A stretch of 64,000 nt of DNA from an uncultured Christensenellaceae bacterium (GCA_964391805.1 CAYMNK010000002.1:19671-83670); one strand, 5' to 3'; shown: positions 1 through 15,951, counted from the stretch's first letter. Notes: generated by a model from the sequence alone, not told the origin. Numbers and translations are program-made.

Positions 1-921
1 AATCATCGGGGAAATCATAGGAGTGGTGATTTTCCATAGTATAGTGGACTTAGAAGCTCCGTCAACCTTGGCTGCATCATAATACTGTTTGTTAACGCTT
101 TGGAGTGAGCTGAACAGAATCAATATCTTAAAAGGAAGGCCTGCCCATATCTCATATACTATAACAACGATATACTTCGCCCAAGGAATAGTTAACGAAC
201 CTATGTGCCATGTCGGAGAACCTATATTCATCCAATTAATAGGTTCTACTCCGAACAACCCTAAAAAGTTGTTTACCAAACCATATGTATCTGGGGCTGA
301 CGGTGTGCCTACTACAGTAAAGAAGGTAGCAAAAACAGCACCCATTGCCAAAGAGTTAGTCAAGTAAGGTAAGAATAGAACTGTTTGATAAGCCTTTTGC
401 AGAGGTTTAATAGATGTCAACGCAACTGCAATCAAAAGAGCAAGTAAGGTTGAAAGCGGTACGGATACAAGGGTAAACACCATTGTATTAACCAAACATT
501 GAAGGAAGCTTGCGCCACCGGTACCGGTATCGCCCTTAAGTACACGAATAAAGTTCTCGAAGCCCCAACCATCGAATCTACCGGTCAAACCGTTATATCC
601 TTGTTTAAAAGCACCGACAAATGCGTTAACGATGGGATAGAAGGTAAAGACTGCCATAAGAATTAGTGCGGGAAGTACGAAAAGCCAGCCCGACTGAGAC
701 TTAAGGAATCTCCTAACCTTTTCGCCCGTACTGAGAGTGGAGGCTTGATCAACTATAGTGACGCCCTCTATCTCATATACGGCATTATTATTCTTTTTAA
801 ATAAACCTTTGAATTTATCACCGAGGTCGGAGAAAAAGTTATTTTTCTTCTGTTCGAGATTTTCTACTTCTTCCTCAGTGGTAATCTCATCGATTCTTTC
901 GTCTAAATCATTCTGCGACAT
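1..921 (-). CDS. Sugar-type ABC transporter permease (MalF/UgpA-like); C-terminus lies beyond window start
   Basis: Not in the ORF track because it runs off the window. The minus-strand frame from ATG 921-919 stays open to nt 1. My translation is MSQNDLDERIDEITTEEEVENLEQ...SGWLFVLPALILMAVFTFYPIVNAF...LFSSLQSVNKQYYDAAKVDGASKSTILWKITTPMISPMI. It has several hydrophobic spans and an EAA-loop-like DAAxxDGA motif. The start overlaps the ATPase stop (TAATG). Confidence 0.8.
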   Translation of the reverse strand, partial: MSQNDLDERIDEITTEEEVENLEQKKNNFFSDLGDKFKGLFKKNNNAVYEIEGVTIVDQASTLSTGEKVRRFLKSQSGWLFVLPALILMAVFTFYPIVNAFVGAFKQGYNGLTGRFDGWGFENFIRVLKGDTGTGGASFLQCLVNTMVFTLVSVPLSTLLALLIAVALTSIKPLQKAYQTVLFLPYLTNSLAMGAVFATFFTVVGTPSAPDTYGLVNNFLGLFGVEPINWMNIGSPTWHIGSLTIPWAKYIVVIVYEIWAGLPFKILILFSSLQSVNKQYYDAAKVDGASKSTILWKITTPMISPMI

Positions 922-1994
922 TATAAGATCCTCTCTTCGGTTTCAGCATTAAATAGGAATACTTTATTAGGTTTCAAATTAAATCTAAACGCACCGAGTT
1001 GTTCGGGAAGTTTGACGTCGGAGTCAACTATAGAACGAACGGTAGGTTTATTAGAGCAAACGTGGCGAGATACGATAGATTTATCTCTACCCATAACCTC
1101 GATGTGGTCAACGTCGAGTGTCAAAACGCCGTTTTCGTCATAGATAAATCCTTCGGGACGGATACCGACCTTGATATTTTGATCTTCGAGGTCTGTACTC
1201 ATAACAACTTCTTCACCGATGTAAACGAGATGATTCTCGATTCTACCGTCGAAGATATTGATAGGAGGCGTACCTAAGAAGTTAGCTACGAATAGGTTAG
1301 CCGGATCGTCATAGATGGATTGAGGTTCACCGATTTGTTGAACAAGACCGAGTTTCATAACAACCATGATATCGCAAATAGACATTGCTTCTTCTTGGTC
1401 GTGGGTAACGAATACGGTGGTGATACCTGTTTCACGTTGGATACGCTTGATCTCCTCACGAGTTTGCAATCTCAAACGAGCGTCGAGGTTGGACAAAGGT
1501 TCGTCAAGAAGTAACACATTAGGCATCTTAACTAATGCACGAGCAATAGCTACACGTTGCTGTTGACCGCCGGATAATTCGGACGGTTTACGAGCTAACA
1601 ATTCTTCGATTTGAACGAGACGTGCGGCATCGAGCGCCTTAGCCTTAGCCTCTTCCTTGGGAATACGCATATTCAACAAGGGGAACATAATGTTTTGTTC
1701 AACCGTCATATGAGGATAAAGCGCATAGTTTTGGAATACTAAGCCGATACCTCTTCTTTCGGGAGCAAGGGTGGTTACATCTTGTTCGTCAAAGAAAATG
1801 TTACCTTGAGTGGGCGCCTCTAAGCCGCTAAGCATAAAAAGCGTCGTCGATTTTCCGCATCCGGAAGGTCCAAGTAAGCCTACAAGCTTACCGGAAGGGA
1901 TTTCTATAGACATATCGTTAACTGCAACGACAGGTTTACCCTTCTTCTCTCTTGACGGAAATACCTTAGTTAAGTGTTGAATCGAAATCTTCAT
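921..1994 (-). CDS. ABC transporter ATP-binding protein, MalK/UgpC/MsmX family
   Basis: Walker A GPSGCGKST, signature LSGGQQQRVAIARAL, Walker B LLLDEPLSNLD, H-loop FVTHDQ, and a MalK-like C-terminal domain. GAGGA lies about 10 nt upstream of the ATG. Confidence 0.95.
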   Translation of the reverse strand: MKISIQHLTKVFPSREKKGKPVVAVNDMSIEIPSGKLVGLLGPSGCGKSTTLFMLSGLEAPTQGNIFFDEQDVTTLAPERRGIGLVFQNYALYPHMTVEQNIMFPLLNMRIPKEEAKAKALDAARLVQIEELLARKPSELSGGQQQRVAIARALVKMPNVLLLDEPLSNLDARLRLQTREEIKRIQRETGITTVFVTHDQEEAMSICDIMVVMKLGLVQQIGEPQSIYDDPANLFVANFLGTPPINIFDGRIENHLVYIGEEVVMSTDLEDQNIKVGIRPEGFIYDENGVLTLDVDHIEVMGRDKSIVSRHVCSNKPTVRSIVDSDVKLPEQLGAFRFNLKPNKVFLFNAETEERIL

Positions 1995-2000
1995 AAAGCT

Positions 2001-3236
2001 TTAGTCCTCACGTTTTATAATCTTGAATGTTATTATTTTTTGATATCCTTCTGCCACGAGGGTTTCGGGAAGATCTTTGGTTACGTATTTATCGTCCAAG
2101 TCAATCCAGAGATTGACGTATTCGCCTGCTTTGACTTGTTCGGTCGATGCATAGTTACGACCTTTGAGAAGTACAAACGCCACGCCCGAATCTTCGTTAG
2201 AATACCTTATTTGTACGCTTCCGTCGAAATTCTCTATAGCGGATACGTCGGCTTGAAGCGTCACTTTACAGAAATAGTCGTGTCCGAATACTTCATTATA
2301 TTTAGGTCTCTTCTCTTTGAATTTGACCTTGAATACCTTGACAAGTAACCACTTAAAGAACTTAATAATATAACGACCGCCAAGTGCGATATCACCGATA
2401 ACGTAGATACATATGAAGTATACTATTACAACTATCGTTGCGGTATGGTCGGCACGTTTTTTAATCGACTCGACCTCTACCGGTGTACTCTGTTTAGTGT
2501 AAGCATCATCGATAGCTAAAAATTGTTCTTCAAGTTGTTTAAGTTCGGTCTCGGCAGAATCACGTTCAGCATCATCGGTTATCCAGGTATATTGATTATT
2601 TTTCTCAATCAAAAGCTCGACATCATCGAAGAACGATTCGGAATAATCGAGTCCTACATCTAACTCGGCAAACGTATTACCGTCCGCATCGATGAGAGTT
2701 ATCTTATCAATGGATTTACATAGATCTTCATATAAATCAATATATATAAATCCGTAATAGTAGTGTGTTGCCGATGTATCGTCAATCTCGTCACCACTCG
2801 AATCGCTATCGAGTAATTCGATATTATGAGTCGCTCCGCTATTATCGGTAACTATCAACTGCGTTTTATTTAAACTCGTCTTGGTTACCTTATAGGTTTC
2901 ACCGACTCCGTATATAAATCCGCCGTATGCCTTATGTATCGCACCGTTGGAAACAGTTTGATCGCCCTTCTCGGCTTCAGTCAAAGTCGCCGAAGAAAAC
3001 AGCACGATTCCACCACCCGACTCAAATTCCTCTTGGTAAACGGGAACACTGTCGTAATACGCAGGTGTGAGCAAATATGCTTCGCTGTATTCCCCTTTTT
3101 CAAGGGCTTCAACTACGTAATCGATAGCATAGTCGTAATAGGCTAAATAATAAGGTACGCTAACGGCAAGTATAAATCCTATAACAAATGTAAACAAATA
3201 ATATAGGACATTAGCAAAAATACGCCCTTTTCTCAT
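2001..3236 (-). CDS. Hypothetical membrane protein (N-terminal TM plus central TM), no family recognised
   Basis: 411-aa ORF, 6 nt upstream of the ABC ATPase. Hydrophobic segments IFANVLYYLFTFVIGFILAVSVPYYL and TIVVIVYFICIYVIGDIAL. No motif recognised. Confidence 0.6.
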   Translation of the reverse strand: MRKGRIFANVLYYLFTFVIGFILAVSVPYYLAYYDYAIDYVVEALEKGEYSEAYLLTPAYYDSVPVYQEEFESGGGIVLFSSATLTEAEKGDQTVSNGAIHKAYGGFIYGVGETYKVTKTSLNKTQLIVTDNSGATHNIELLDSDSSGDEIDDTSATHYYYGFIYIDLYEDLCKSIDKITLIDADGNTFAELDVGLDYSESFFDDVELLIEKNNQYTWITDDAERDSAETELKQLEEQFLAIDDAYTKQSTPVEVESIKKRADHTATIVVIVYFICIYVIGDIALGGRYIIKFFKWLLVKVFKVKFKEKRPKYNEVFGHDYFCKVTLQADVSAIENFDGSVQIRYSNEDSGVAFVLLKGRNYASTEQVKAGEYVNLWIDLDDKYVTKDLPETLVAEGYQKIITFKIIKRED

Positions 3237-3245
3237 TATAGGCCG

Positions 3246-3617
3246 TTATTCCTCTACACTTTCATCGGAAGACTCGACTGCTTCGGCAATATCGCTGTCG
3301 GATATATTGTCGAAACGAGCAACGATTTCCGATGCCTCTTCGTCACCGATTACCGATGATTCTAAGTGTTCGGCAACGAACTCTTCCTCAACTACTTCTT
3401 CTACCACTTCTTCGCTGTCGGCAACGGATTCGCCTTTATTGGCTCTAAACGCAGCCTCACGCTTACGGAGATTCTCTCTCTGCTCCTCATACTGTTTTTT
3501 GTTAAATACGGGAATCAGATAGTAGACCGCTATAATTAATGCAATAGCTACACCGCATCCGATAAAGAATCCGATGTCAACCGATTTTAAACCATTTAGA
3601 AGTAACAAGCCACTCAT
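3246..3617 (-). CDS. Small single-pass membrane protein with a highly acidic C-terminal tail
   Basis: 123-aa ORF with AAGGAG 8 nt upstream of the ATG. N-terminal TM FFIGCGVAIALIIAVYYLIPVF, then an E/D-rich tail. First gene after the long leader. Confidence 0.6.
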   Translation of the reverse strand: MSGLLLLNGLKSVDIGFFIGCGVAIALIIAVYYLIPVFNKKQYEEQRENLRKREAAFRANKGESVADSEEVVEEVVEEEFVAEHLESSVIGDEEASEIVARFDNISDSDIAEAVESSDESVEE

Positions 3618-3663
3618 ACTTTGCTCCTTAATCCATTAGTTATCTCTAAGAGACCATATAAAC

Positions 3664-3703
3664 AAAAAAGTACAATTACGTGGTTAAGCGCAAATTGTAC
3701 TTC
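3664..3703 (-). terminator. Intrinsic terminator inside the leader
   Basis: Minus strand reads (GA)AGTACAATT - 15 nt loop - AATTGTACT followed by TTTTTTG. Confidence 0.7.
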
Positions 3704-3797
3704 TCAATTCCATAATAAAAACACAAGGGGTGCCGAAAAAGACGGTTTGACCCAAATAAGACTTATTTGTTTGTCGTTCGCAACTGATTCTTAACAT
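3684..3797 (-). CDS. Candidate 37-codon leader ORF (MLRISCERQTNKSYLGQTVFFGTPCVFIMELRSTICA)
   Basis: ATG 3797-3795 is preceded by GAGGGT with a 6-nt spacer. The reading frame runs through the 5' arm of the terminator hairpin and stops (TAA, 3686-3684) inside its loop. Too short for the ORF track, and it could be a chance ORF. Confidence 0.25.
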   Translation of the reverse strand: MLRISCERQTNKSYLGQTVFFGTPCVFIMELRSTICA

Positions 3798-3841
3798 TTC
3801 GTTACCCTCGCAGTGTTTTTCAGATAAATCTTAATGAGTTT

Positions 3842-3870
3842 ATTCTAACACCACAGACGATAAAAATCAA
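3842..3870 (-). promoter_or_regulatory. Sigma-A-type promoter TTGATT-17-TGtTAGAAT
   Basis: Read on the minus strand: -35 TTGATT (3870-3865), 17-nt spacer, extended -10 TGTTAGAAT (3850-3842). Confidence 0.55.
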
Positions 3871-4084
3871 CAATTTTCGATAAACTCTCTTAAGATTTTT
3901 TATTAAAATATATAATCAATATATTTAGTACGTGAATTCGTCCCCGATAAATAGCCCAAATAGGGATGAATTCACATACCGTATAACTATTATATACTCT
4001 ATTTAATTATTTTTCAAGACCTAATTTTCCTTTTTTTGAAATAATTTTTTACATTTTTTATAAAATTGCAATATTTATATACCT

Positions 4085-4672
4085 TTATACCTTGAATTCG
4101 TAACGATAGGTCACTTTGGCTCCATCAGTAGACGTGTAAGATATGGTTATATAATTGAAGGTTGCGTCTTTGAAGGATGCCGTTACTGTCATATCGCTAC
4201 ATTCGATATCATTGCCCAAAAATTCCTTAGGAGAGGTAACTTTCGCTTTGAACATCGAAGTTGTGATCGATATATCGGTAAAATATGCTCCATCGAACTT
4301 CAAGCCAATTTCGGTCATTCCGCTAAGGTCGACATCTACTGCGTCGCCTTCGGTGATTGTTAGTTTACCCTCTTTAACGAGTGCTTTGCCCTCAATGGTG
4401 GTTTTAAATTCGCTCAATGCGTCAATGGATAACTCGTTGAGTTTTTCAACGGTGTAGTCGATTTCGTAACCTTCGCCTACTCGCGAGATTTCAAATTCGT
4501 TGGTTAGGCTTACATTATTCTTGAGGGTGGTCACATTGACGGTCCATCCGCTGTAATACTCGGATAGCTTGTCGTTAAGTGCGCCGATTGTCGAATCGCC
4601 TAAGCCGTCACACGCACAAAATACCAATACCAATAAACATAAAACTGCTAATACAGATATAATTCTTTTCAT
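4085..4672 (-). CDS. Secreted protein or putative lipoprotein, unknown function
   Basis: 195 aa with signal-like N-terminus MKRIISVLAVLCLLVLVFCAC|DG (non-canonical lipobox). AAGGAGG lies 8 nt upstream. 13 nt downstream of the nuclease gene. Confidence 0.6.
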   Translation of the reverse strand: MKRIISVLAVLCLLVLVFCACDGLGDSTIGALNDKLSEYYSGWTVNVTTLKNNVSLTNEFEISRVGEGYEIDYTVEKLNELSIDALSEFKTTIEGKALVKEGKLTITEGDAVDVDLSGMTEIGLKFDGAYFTDISITTSMFKAKVTSPKEFLGNDIECSDMTVTASFKDATFNYITISYTSTDGAKVTYRYEFKV

Positions 4673-4685
4673 TGCTCTATCCTCC

Positions 4686-6905
4686 TTACAATAATTTCTT
4701 GATCAACTCAAGCAAGGCACTTGCCACCAATAGGAAGACACCCGATGCGCAAACCGCATTCTCGGTACTTGTTTGGGAAGACTCGTTGATGTCGGAGACA
4801 ACAGCGTTGTAGGCGCTCAATGCCGATTGAAGGGTGGATAATGACGACTTGACTTCGCTATCCTCTTTTTGTTCGGCGGAAAGGGCGTTGTAGGCGCTTA
4901 TTGCCTTATTTAAGCTCTCGTAGCGTTGATACGGTGTGCCGTCTGTTACGATAAGGGATACCGCACTCGTGAACTTATCAATCAATGTTCTGTCCGGCGT
5001 GGGTTCGCCCTTTTGATTAATCTTGACCGATATGGTGGTAGAATTATCACCTGAGGTGATTGTTACCGTTTGTGCAGTGAATACTGTAGAATCAAAACCG
5101 CTAAGTACATAATCATCGATTTCGACTTTGCTTCCGTCCGAATATACTTCGTTTACCGTCAATTTTTCTCTTAGATCGTCTAAAGTTGCGTTATCTTCGT
5201 CAAGCGTTACAGATGAAGGCGTGCATTCAATTGATTCAACGGTCGGCTCTGGATCGTCACCGCCACCGATGTCGCCACCCGAACTGCCGCCGGGGGTTAC
5301 GTATTCAACAATAATACTGTCAAGGTAACTAGCACCTTCCTTTGAATCTAATTCATACGTCAAAGCAAAATAAGTGTCGTTTCCACTAACCGACCAAGTC
5401 ACTCCCTCGGAAGTAACAGTCTGCGTCCCCCAATCATTACCGTTAGTCGGTTTTCCTGTTACTTCAGTATATGCAGACGTTGATGTCAAAAGCTTCCATG
5501 GTCTATCCGTTTTACCTTCATAACCCTTGACTGTTACCGATGTAATATATCCATTCACCGCAACATTACTTGCTAAATAATAACTTGTTTGCTTCTTATT
5601 AAATTGTAAACCGGTCGAAGAATAATTGCCATTGCCTCCATATATAAAAGCAAGACCTCCAATTCCACCTGAACTCCAATCCTTAAAACCGTAGTTTGCA
5701 GTCATATTAAAACTATTCTTATCAATAGTGATATAATTAACTTCACCATCGCCAGAGGAAGATGATTTAGTAACAGTTACGAGTGCTAATACATCTATTT
5801 CGGGATTAGCTACGCTTGTAGCTGTAATAATTGCTTCACCCTCGCCCTTTGCCGTTAAAATACCGCTTGAATTAACAGTAACAACAGAGGTATTATTCGA
5901 CTCCCATGTTACTCTACCGTCAGCAGATGCCGGGTAAGGAGTTACAGATAATTTTTTACTTTGACCAATACTCAATTCTATCACATCGGGAGTAATTGTT
6001 AAATCTTCAAGCTCGGGAACAACTGCAGAATCACCCCAAATTCTATCGGCATAGGTTTGATCATCAATAAATGGGTTTCTATTACCTTGAATAGCATAAA
6101 CAGCATCGTTACGATTACGCTCGATATCGTCTACAGGATCAAGTTTATTCCATTCAAGAAGCAATGCAATTGCAGATGCTTCATTATGAGCACTAACGAC
6201 GTTTGTAAAATTCAAAGTGCCAAAGGAAGCGGAACCGGATCCATTGGTAGTACCACCTACATTTGAATACGTGTTATAGTGAGTATAAACGTACATTACA
6301 ATACGTGCAACGTCACCTTTTACGTTATCAAGAGGTTCGAAAACTTTAAGTGATTTATTGTTATAACCTCCAAGTGCTACAGGATTATCAGATGCGTCTT
6401 CATAGTAAACTTTATAACTGTCGCGTAATTCTAATTCGCCATATTTATTATTACCTCTTGCGCTATTTAAACCGGATTCCACTGGTCTTATGTGATGTAG
6501 GTCGCTACCGCCACCGGAAGTACCCCATAATCCGCCGGATAAACTTTGGCACCATACGTGCTCACGATTCCAAGTTCCTTGATTACCACCACCCCATTTG
6601 GAAGAAATGTTAACCTGAGAATAAAACTCCATAACGTTACCGTTGGTACCGGCATCGGTTTTAAGTATAGTTGAAGGAGTTTTACAATCGGTATAACTCG
6701 TATAGGTTTTATGAGTTGTTGTGATTAAATCGTGTAATTGTCCTAAAAGGGCTGTACCGCTCGATGCAGTAATGGACGAATAATAACTGCTACTATCCGC
6801 AAAAGCATAGTCGGTTTCGATAAAGCCAAGGAAAGAAAATACATTAAGAATTAACGCTACTACCAATAAAAATGATAGAAAACGCGTAAGGTTTAATTTT
6901 TTCAT
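4686..6905 (-). CDS. Cell-surface or secreted nuclease: endonuclease I family domain + Big_2 Ig-like domain + C-terminal hydrophobic anchor
   Basis: N-terminal signal/TM. Endonuclease-I-type motifs WNREHVWCQS and DLHHIRPVESGLNSARGNNKYGE (nt ~6456-6569). Big_2-like LTITPDVIELSIGQSKKLSVTPYPASADGRVTWESNNTSVVTVNSSGILTAKGEGEAIITATS. C-terminal VFLLVASALLELIKKLL. AGGAG lies 5 nt upstream. Confidence 0.8.
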   Translation of the reverse strand: MKKLNLTRFLSFLLVVALILNVFSFLGFIETDYAFADSSSYYSSITASSGTALLGQLHDLITTTHKTYTSYTDCKTPSTILKTDAGTNGNVMEFYSQVNISSKWGGGNQGTWNREHVWCQSLSGGLWGTSGGGSDLHHIRPVESGLNSARGNNKYGELELRDSYKVYYEDASDNPVALGGYNNKSLKVFEPLDNVKGDVARIVMYVYTHYNTYSNVGGTTNGSGSASFGTLNFTNVVSAHNEASAIALLLEWNKLDPVDDIERNRNDAVYAIQGNRNPFIDDQTYADRIWGDSAVVPELEDLTITPDVIELSIGQSKKLSVTPYPASADGRVTWESNNTSVVTVNSSGILTAKGEGEAIITATSVANPEIDVLALVTVTKSSSSGDGEVNYITIDKNSFNMTANYGFKDWSSGGIGGLAFIYGGNGNYSSTGLQFNKKQTSYYLASNVAVNGYITSVTVKGYEGKTDRPWKLLTSTSAYTEVTGKPTNGNDWGTQTVTSEGVTWSVSGNDTYFALTYELDSKEGASYLDSIIVEYVTPGGSSGGDIGGGDDPEPTVESIECTPSSVTLDEDNATLDDLREKLTVNEVYSDGSKVEIDDYVLSGFDSTVFTAQTVTITSGDNSTTISVKINQKGEPTPDRTLIDKFTSAVSLIVTDGTPYQRYESLNKAISAYNALSAEQKEDSEVKSSLSTLQSALSAYNAVVSDINESSQTSTENAVCASGVFLLVASALLELIKKLL

Positions 6906-7424: not shown

Positions 7425-7500
7425 TGGTGGGAACAATAGGGCTCGAACCTATGACCCTCTGCTTGTAAGGCAGATGCTCTCCCAACTGAGCTATGCTCCC
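7425..7500 (-). tRNA. tRNA-Val (anticodon TAC)
   Basis: The reverse complement GGGAGCATAGCTCAGTTGGGAGAGCATCTGCCTTACAAGCAGAGGGTCATAGGTTCGAGCCCTATTGTTCCCACCA folds as a cloverleaf. Anticodon loop CTTACAA, T-loop GGTTCGAGCC, encoded CCA. Confidence 0.92.
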
Positions 7501-15354: not shown

Positions 15355-15428
15355 GCGAGTGTAGTTCAAAGGCAGAATCCCAGCCTTCCAAGCTGGTTGT
15401 GTGGGTTCGATTCCCATCACTCGCTCCA
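15355..15428 (+). tRNA. tRNA-Gly (TCC)
   Basis: Acceptor GCGAGTG/CACTCGC, anticodon arm CCAGC-CTTCCAA-GCTGG, T-loop GGTTCGATTCC, CCA encoded. Confidence 0.92.
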
Positions 15429-15432
15429 ACAT

Positions 15433-15508
15433 GGTTCAGTAGCTCAGTGGATAGAGCAACGGCCTTCTAAGCCGTAGGTCGAGGGTTCGAATCCCCCCTG
15501 GATCACCA
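15433..15508 (+). tRNA. tRNA-Arg (TCT)
   Basis: Anticodon arm ACGGC-CTTCTAA-GCCGT, T-loop GGTTCGAATCC, acceptor stem with two G-U pairs, CCA encoded. Confidence 0.85.
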
Positions 15509-15514
15509 AGGTGT

Positions 15515-15592
15515 GGTGGGATTAGCTCAGATGGTTAGAGCGCCAGGTTGTGGCCCTGGAGGCCAAGGGTTCGAATCCCTTATCTCACCCCA
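15515..15592 (+). tRNA. tRNA-His (GTG) with extra 5' G(-1)
   Basis: Anticodon arm CCAGG-TTGTGGC-CCTGG, G-1 opposite C73, T-arm AAGGG-TTCGAAT-CCCTT, CCA encoded. Confidence 0.9.
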
Positions 15593-15623
15593 TACTTAAT
15601 TAATCACTCGAAATCGCTAACTT

Positions 15624-15698
15624 AGGGGTATCGCCAAGCGGTAAGGCACTAGACTTTGACTCTAGCATTCGTAGGTTCAAATCCTGCTACCCCTGCCA
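15624..15698 (+). tRNA. tRNA-Gln (TTG)
   Basis: Acceptor AGGGGTA/TACCCCT, anticodon arm CTAGA-CTTTGAC-TCTAG, CCA encoded. Confidence 0.9.
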
Positions 15699-15774
15699 GA
15701 CCCACTAGCTCAGAAGGTAGAGCATTTGACTTTTAATCAAAGGGTCCGGGGTTCGAATCCCCGGTGGGTCACCA
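15699..15774 (+). tRNA. tRNA-Lys (TTT)
   Basis: Acceptor GACCCAC/GTGGGTC, anticodon arm TTTGA-CTTTTAA-TCAAA, T-arm CCGGGGTTCGAATCCCCGG, CCA encoded. Abuts tRNA-Gln with 0-nt spacer. Confidence 0.92.
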
Positions 15775-15869
15775 AGGGCTGTCTATGATTTTCTAGGCAG
15801 CCCTAAATTAAATGTACTGATTGGGATTCACCTCCCTCTTTTGATTCCAATCAGTACCCTCCTTTTTAA

Positions 15870-15951
15870 GCGCCTGTGGCGGAATGGCAGACGCGCTAGA
15901 CTTAGGATCTAGTGTTCACACGTGGAGGTTCAAGTCCTCTCAGGCGCACCA
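15870..15951 (+). tRNA. tRNA-Leu (TAG), long variable arm
   Basis: Acceptor GCGCCTG/CAGGCGC, anticodon arm CTAGA-CTTAGGA-TCTAG, variable arm, T-loop GGTTCAAGTCC, CCA encoded. Confidence 0.9.

Follow-up and report, generated by a model that had tools for sequence, protein, structure and literature searches.

An ATP-binding cassette (ABC) transporter operon in a 64,000-nucleotide (nt) stretch of DNA from an uncultured Christensenellaceae bacterium (GCA_964391805.1, CAYMNK010000002.1:19671-83670; hereafter the window, numbered from its first letter) is preceded by a leader that recurs in at least 13 lineages of related uncultured gut Clostridia, and because of this recurrence we take the arrangement to be more than chance. 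Judged from its sequence, the conserved leader is most likely a real, unannotated switch in front of the operon, and one that belongs to no described family. The reading we favour, with a little better than even confidence, is that it is a leader-peptide transcription attenuator, in which a ribosome translating a short upstream open reading frame (uORF) directly occludes the 5' arm of an intrinsic terminator. We favour it because the uORF and its geometry are conserved, because no other anti-termination device and, in the window, no promoter-like site after the hairpin were found, and because the arrangement recurs independently at two more distant loci, L013 and L020.

All elements of the leader are on the minus strand. 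The promoter named in the original prediction, TTGATT-17-TGtTAGAAT, was recovered by a promoter scan at 3870-3842, with its -35 hexamer TTGATT at 3870-3865, a 17-nt spacer and an extended -10 element TGtTAGAAT at 3850-3842; it is kept in relatives, its columns being conserved in the leader alignment and its hexamers and spacing identical in loci L002 and L031. Transcription probably starts near 3835, and the 218-nt length of the 5' untranslated region depends on that start. Equally sound was the proposal of a 37-codon uORF with the spacing GAGGGT-6-ATG and a stop in the terminator loop: the frame occupies 3684-3797 and encodes MLRISCERQTNKSYLGQTVFFGTPCVFIMELRSTICA, its Shine-Dalgarno (SD) sequence GAGGGT (3809-3804) stands 6 nt ahead of the ATG (3797-3795), and its TAA (3686-3684) falls within the loop. 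The terminator itself (3664-3702) consists of a 5' arm at 3702-3689, an 8-nt loop at 3688-3681, a 3' arm at 3680-3668 and a U6 tract at 3669-3664; in the RNAfold structure of the predicted leader, 13 pairs form a hairpin at 3702-3668 that pairs partly with the U6 tract, with a hairpin energy of -12.3 kcal/mol. The hairpin and U6 had been placed rightly, at 3664-3703, and only the distance of about 45 nt to the next SD needs correcting: the end of the U-tract lies 34 nt from the SD of p123, the first operon gene, and 46 nt from its ATG. The start of p123 (3615-3629; SD AAGGAG at 3629-3624, ATG at 3617-3615) is invariant in the leader alignment, and the promoter scan found no promoter-like site between the terminator and p123 in the window. 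A terminator scan by a simple rule does not list the window hairpin, probably due to a bulge and the 8-nt loop, which fall outside the rule; the orthologous hairpin of L002 is listed.

The leader was traced through p411, the second gene of the operon, which has 108 homologue clusters. A genome scan with a 10-sequence alignment gave 22 loci from metagenome-assembled genomes labelled Christensenellaceae or Clostridia, all with the same p123-p411-ABC gene order, and the closest p411 clusters were looked up for further loci. The window-type leader is present in the window, L001, L023/24, L002, L025, L034, L003/L028-30, L031/32, L039, L047, L035/36, L037 and L040, lineages whose p411 is about 48-84% identical to that of the window and whose leader DNA is alignable at 68-89% identity. 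An nhmmer search of the whole window and all loci with a leader profile found one copy in the window and none at the more distant loci. The tests of frame, geometry, terminator covariation and antitermination described below cover 12 of these lineages, L047 having been found afterwards. Alignment of the orthologous upstream regions bears out conservation of both the uORF frame and the terminator covariation. Over 29 codons from the ATG, the uORF frame contains no stop in any of the 12 lineages, against 24 and 23 stops in the other two frames, and a shuffled sequence stays open with a probability of about 0.12 per sequence. Indels in the conserved part of the uORF, in L031 and L035, are whole codons, and a GGAG-type SD precedes the ATG in every one of the 13 lineages.

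Within that frame it is the N-terminal 21 residues of the peptide that are kept, with the consensus M-x3/4-C-x2-Q-(T)-N-K-S-Y-x4-V-F-F, and the C-terminal 12-23 residues that are free to vary. In the window, peptide alignments place the conserved core, C-x2-Q-T-N-K-S-Y-x4-V-F-F, at codons 6-21 (3735-3782); M1, C6, Q9, N11, S13 and F20 are invariant among the nine peptides first aligned. The ten conserved codons show wobble-type variation, with pairwise diversity of 0.10, 0.06 and 0.30 at positions 1, 2 and 3 (TGC/TGT, TCT/TCA and GTC/GTA are examples). Such a pattern would fit a second reading of the same architecture, in which the nascent peptide is the sensor: the core would make the ribosome slow down or stall when faced with a small molecule, an antibiotic or a charged tRNA in limiting supply, and its timely arrival at the terminator would depend on that delay. 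Antibiotic-sensing leader peptides are found before terminators in Firmicutes, bmrB being one example (PMC4191407). We nevertheless consider this reading unlikely. The core motif is lost in L040, L013 and L020, and these loci, together with L037, retain the geometry with different or unrelated peptides. The distance from motif to stop varies, being 13-16 residues in general and 23 in L034, and the lack of synonymous change in some conserved codons fits a constraint on the RNA. A ribosome stalled at V-F-F would leave the terminator free, and with no antiterminator the sole possible outcome of such a stall would be an operon turned off. Nor does the window uORF contain a run of rare or repeated regulatory codons; its only tandem conserved codons are Phe-Phe, and the operon encodes a CUT1-type importer. 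Rare-codon sensing was rejected for want of any rare-codon run, and Cys-codon sensing because the Cys-codon excess is mostly compositional: TGY counts in the three frames are 34, 23 and 17, a mild in-frame enrichment. More specifically, the 16-residue core might be a new nascent-chain sensor that adjusts the pace of the pioneer ribosome to a metabolite or the transporter substrate, with the terminator controlled purely by occlusion, a version that we likewise rate as unlikely.

The description of the leader as an orphan holds. A covariance-model scan against Rfam returned no family in the leader at the gathering score or at E values up to 10, and the uORF peptide matches no Pfam family. A word-indexed search of 5.8 billion protein sequences found no match to the peptide; scanning all 1.84 billion representatives with HMMER yielded three matches, each a tandem-repeat translation artefact, and no real homologue. 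Searching metagenome contigs with a degenerate DNA pattern of the conserved codons produced 4 chance matches, without leader-like context.

The position of the uORF relative to the terminator is kept even where the sequence is not. The start of the terminator 5' arm lies 88-96 nt from the AUG in 12/12 lineages, and in 7 of the 12 the stop falls at +15 from the start of the stem, in the loop; in the others it falls at +9, +11, +14, -4 and +38. The hairpin is read in different frames, as GAG TAC AAA in L002 and L034 versus AGT ACA AAA, and the L034 uORF reads through the entire hairpin. In L040 the N-K-S-Y motif is lost via two 1-nt indels, and the frame is still open to the terminator loop. The hairpin is itself constrained by pairing: over its 13 pairs 91.9% of cells are paired, 5 pairs have changed on both sides (for instance AAAA/UUUU to AAUU/AAUU), slid registers pair at 41-57%, and the covariation score is reached by 0/500 shuffles. 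The terminators of the 12 lineages score -8.6 to -17.9 kcal/mol. No competing structure was found upstream: in 12/12 lineages the best pairing that the 5' arm can make there has a score of -3.9 to -6.4 kcal/mol, which does not beat that of shuffled arms. Therefore the leader has no RNA antiterminator, unlike trp-type attenuators, bmrB and the expression platforms of riboswitches, and only something sitting on the RNA can block the hairpin. The idea that a translating ribosome would melt the terminator is thus favoured by the comparative data: uORF, SD, distance and overlap with the 5' arm are kept in the 13 lineages, the C-terminal half of the peptide and the frame across the terminator are not, and no RNA antiterminator takes part. 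The term classical attenuation has to be given up, as the leader is not of the trp type and has neither a 2:3 antiterminator nor a run of regulatory codons.

Two loci with more divergent p411 genes carry the same arrangement with other peptides. L020 (leader at L020:3514-3764; p411 36% identical) has an unrelated 40-codon uORF with an SD, a stop at the top of a 15-bp terminator and an SD-sequestering helix, GGGGUGGG/CCCAACCC, directly after CUU UUC codons. L013 (leader at L013:3540-3740; p411 45% identical) has an unrelated 27-codon uORF with a GAGGG SD that reads through the whole leader terminator. The presence of unrelated uORFs in the same place at these loci speaks for selection on the arrangement and not on the peptide.

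The same terminator geometry could arise if the uORF were an ordinary small-protein gene with its own stop-overlapping terminator, a common arrangement among Firmicutes, and the operon were expressed by constant leaky read-through without translation-dependent control. In B. subtilis it is normal for a terminator to lie close to a stop (PMC7858274), two or more gene ends in the window possibly have a hairpin no further than 6 nt from the stop, and the N-terminal half of the peptide is conserved. We give this explanation little credence. It is at odds with the free C-terminal third to half of the peptide, with the frame across the terminator that varies between lineages and in L034 reads through it, and with the want of a real peptide homologue in either protein-database search. 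Moreover, the element occurs only before this operon, once in the window, and a strong terminator that stands directly between a conserved operon and its only promoters must somehow be relieved. Should this explanation hold, the leader would amount to no more than an annotation detail.

A second conserved feature is a long-range, interrupted helix, which we call P1. In the window it pairs 3820-3798 (5' arm AAAAACAC..GGGU..CGAAA, which holds the uORF SD) with 3738-3717 (3' arm UUUCG..ACCCC..GUGUUUUU, which spans uORF codons 20-27); a conserved U5 run lies at 3740-3736. Across relatives, the roughly 24-30 nt before the AUG, SD included, pair with about 30 nt that start at the F-F codons. The arm sequences are clade-specific, GAGGGU/ACCCC versus GGAGCGUAGG/CUUGCGCUCU, and P1 duplexes beat shuffles in 7/9 sequences, cognate arms average -14.9 kcal/mol as compared with -10.6 kcal/mol for arms combined with those of other clades, and in the window clade, the L002/L025/L034 clade, L039 and L037 no arm pairs better than the cognate one. 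P1 ends at +81 from the AUG, 14 nt ahead of the terminator stem, and does not overlap the terminator. The helix CAC..GAGGG/CCCCTTGTG of the original prediction is therefore real, enclosing 72-88 nt where about 100 nt had been estimated, but its likeness to a riboswitch aptamer was not upheld: the helix sequesters the uORF SD, its register shifts between clades and its inner hairpins are not conserved. A ligand-binding aptamer closed by CAC..GAGGG/CCCCUUGUG and controlling the terminator would account for a long-range helix of this span just upstream of the terminator, and for a leader that folds modestly better than shuffles (z = -1.99). It is nonetheless highly improbable and already largely refuted, since no Rfam family matches even at E values up to 10, the only consensus helix that RNAalifold calls in the leader is the terminator, three small hairpins inside the window P1 are absent from other clades, no alternative pairing joins the helix to the terminator, and the enclosed sequence evolves like a reading frame. 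By comparison of these sequences, P1 fits an SD-sequestering clamp and not an aptamer.

Firmicute sugar-uptake operons are often under the control of RNA-binding antiterminator proteins, and it is also possible that a trans-acting factor (a protein, small RNA or metabolite) binding the SD/P1 region or the strongly conserved terminator stem sets termination, with the uORF serving as a read-out or being incidental. The lower stem AGUACAA/UUGUACU and CAACAAACAAAUAAGUC are more constant than pairing or coding alone requires, and P1 does hide the SD. We regard such a factor as quite unlikely, however: no curated RNA family matches, there are no conserved helices inside P1, no regulator gene is kept beside the leader (the upstream neighbours vary between loci), and a trans-acting factor would leave unexplained both the stop asymmetry of 0 versus 24 and 23 and the whole-codon indels. 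A site of the BglG/LicT-type ribonucleic antiterminator kind was looked for by eye with no convincing match; the segment before the terminator is variable.

We propose that ribosome occlusion would work in the following way. Transcription would begin at the TTGATT/TGtTAGAAT promoter, and the uORF SD and AUG would emerge first, so that a ribosome could load only before the 3' arm of P1 is made, some 60-80 nt later; once formed, P1 would hide the SD and limit further loading. With no ribosome on the uORF, or with a lagging one, the AU-rich hairpin and U6 would form and the transcript would end near 3664, a default off state. A ribosome close behind the polymerase would instead sit on the 5' arm (3702-3689) as the 3' arm is synthesised, no hairpin would form, and p123, p411 and the ABC genes would be transcribed. 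P1 may double as a loading timer and as a pause hairpin, one melted by the ribosome like that of the trp leader. On this scheme the uORF would be translated, and the ribosome would have to keep up with the polymerase in this organism. Since the leader lacks a 2:3 antiterminator and any run of regulatory codons, we infer that efficient translation turns the operon on, not off, and that slowed translation represses it. The signal could be general translation capacity or the availability of one particular charged tRNA, or it could act through the conserved nascent peptide.

Several points weigh against the occlusion reading. The lineages are related, so that counts across them are not independent, and the attenuator model as a whole is drawn from sequence and its comparison. 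The coding signal is uneven: averaged over codons 2-24, diversity at positions 1, 2 and 3 is 0.32, 0.33 and 0.36, with no third-position excess, and several conserved codons (AAT, TTT, CAA) are without any synonymous change, so that part of the apparent peptide conservation may be at the RNA level and selection may be patchy. P1 is likewise imperfect. Its register shifts between clades, with 62-68% of cells paired in fixed registers (still above controls), RNAalifold did not call it, and it is weak or absent in L003, L031, L035 and L040. Transcription outruns translation in B. subtilis, where ordinary terminators a few nt after stops are unmasked (PMC7858274), and the stop-in-loop geometry alone is therefore weak evidence for regulation in a Firmicute. 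Clear gene-end terminators are too scarce in the window to judge the stop-to-terminator regime of this organism. Finally, there is no obvious physiological logic in switching on a sugar-type importer by good translation.

The occlusion reading has a counterpart in the pyrBI operon of E. coli, in which the leader ORF overlaps an intrinsic terminator without an antiterminator hairpin, and a closely following ribosome prevents hairpin formation and so causes read-through. In both leaders an ORF runs into or through the terminator such that a ribosome can cover its 5' arm, and in neither is there an RNA antiterminator. The differences are considerable: here the host is of Firmicute type, the genes encode a sugar-type ABC importer and membrane proteins without known function rather than pyrimidine enzymes, the stop usually lies in the terminator loop, a long-range helix that sequesters the SD is present as well, the sequence-based work gave no sign of UTP-sensitive pausing, and there is no sequence similarity. 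By analogy, the leader resembles pyrBI in its working, rather than trp, but is not a member of the pyrBI family. More generally in E. coli, a stop codon near a terminator represses termination via the lead ribosome, and pyrBI uses the same effect with pausing (PMC4824070). Like ours, the leaders of trp, his, phe, leu and thr encode a short leader peptide served by an SD of its own, place a terminator ahead of the first structural gene and have an upstream hairpin that may pause polymerase and be melted by the ribosome; they differ in having a 2:3 antiterminator, tandem regulatory codons and a leader stop upstream of the terminator rather than inside it, and the logic predicted here is the inverse of theirs.

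Among Gram-positive systems, a close comparison is the bmrB leader of B. subtilis, where a terminator lies inside a small translated leader ORF before the ABC genes bmrCD, and where abolishing leader translation lowers downstream expression (PMC4191407). Host type, the placement of an intrinsic terminator within a leader ORF, and the downstream ABC-transporter genes are all alike. However, bmrB has a predicted antiterminator and anti-antiterminator and is induced by antibiotic-slowed ribosomes (PMC4191407); with no antiterminator here, slowing should repress. BmrCD is also an exporter, unlike the CUT1-type importer of the present operon, and the peptides are unrelated. For tet(M) of Tn916, the orf12 model of Su et al. 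(1992), as recounted in bioRxiv 10.1101/2021.03.24.436905, has faster leader translation let the ribosome catch the polymerase and block the terminator, and the same preprint disputes the role of the leader peptide. The likeness lies in the Gram-positive host and in a proposed block of the leader terminator by leader-peptide translation; that system concerns a resistance gene on a mobile element with rare codons, and there is no similarity of sequence or context.

The operon as visible in the window (921-3617, minus strand, like the genes named with it here) comprises p123 (3246-3617), p411 (2001-3236) and a MalK/UgpC-like ABC ATPase (921-1994; assigned by Pfam and NCBIfam). In relatives, two BPD_transp_1 permeases, unusually long ones, come after the ATPase, and the regulated unit is therefore two membrane proteins without known function, p123 and p411, plus a CUT1-type ABC system. 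The p411/p123 pair is conserved and always directly upstream of the CUT1-type ATPase and permeases; a binding-protein gene was not found in the operon stretch examined. Neither p123 nor p411, nor the upstream p195, matches a Pfam or NCBIfam family. An AlphaFold2 model of p411 (predicted local distance difference test score, pLDDT, 87.7) combines beta-sandwich domains with two long helical membrane segments; compared with the PDB it gave only generic beta-sandwich folds and no significant match, so it offers no clue to the signal that is sensed. Constraint within the operon is strikingly uneven, the ABC ATPase being 79-97% identical across loci where the adjacent p411 is 36-75% identical. Upstream, a 467-nt intergenic region (4084-3618) separates the operon from p195, a lipoprotein-like ORF of 195 amino acids (aa) at 4085-4672, and beyond it lies a 739-aa protein (4686-6905) with Endonuclease_1, Big_2 and Big_3 domains and predicted secretion. 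These two genes are syntenic with the operon in several relatives, not in all. The window also holds tRNA genes, a cluster of six at 15355-15948 (plus strand) and a single one at 7428-7500 (minus strand).

The intergenic region holds further elements on the minus strand. A second promoter-like site, TTGAAA-17-TATAAT (3989-4017; 11/12 matches in the promoter scan), is near consensus and lies about 150 nt upstream of the leader promoter; its hexamers are the same in L002 and L031, it is recognised by eye in most relatives, and transcripts from it would also cross the leader. Directly after it, in the window and in L023, comes a 12-bp hairpin, GUAUGUGAAUUC/GAAUUCACGUAC (3928-3979), whose arms differ between the two with pairing retained, and which might serve as a stem-loop that stabilises the 5' end. 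A small hairpin, UCUC-UUA-GAGA (3641-3655), follows the terminator and precedes the p123 SD, and recurs with different sequences in L001, L002, L025 and L034; its CUCUU could pair alternatively with the AAGGAG SD. Other loci carry other stretches in front of the operon. In the clade of L004-L010, L016 and L045 a conserved stretch, situated some 350 nt ahead of the p123 homologue, takes the place of the uORF leader, being called as a 95-aa ORF in L045/L046 and containing a strong hairpin and U-run about 220 nt before p123, and L011 has GGGGGAA, UUUCCCCC and GGGGAAA segments with possible alternative pairings. Leaders of several different designs may attenuate the operon.

If the occlusion reading is right, the leader would represent a conserved, unannotated family of leader-peptide attenuators from uncultured gut Christensenellales-like bacteria. 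Its design would be rare outside enterobacteria: no antiterminator, the ribosome as sole anti-termination factor, and a helix that closes the window for ribosome loading. It would also provide a regulatory handle on a conserved operon of unassigned role, that of p123, p411 and the CUT1-type ABC system. Such a switch would work only with the first ribosome within about 30-40 nt of the polymerase, and the leader would thus be a compact natural test of transcription-translation coupling in a Firmicute lineage. Should the core prove to be a nascent-chain sensor, transcription and translation would be physically coupled, at least at this leader, in a Clostridia lineage for which B. subtilis would lead one to expect uncoupling.

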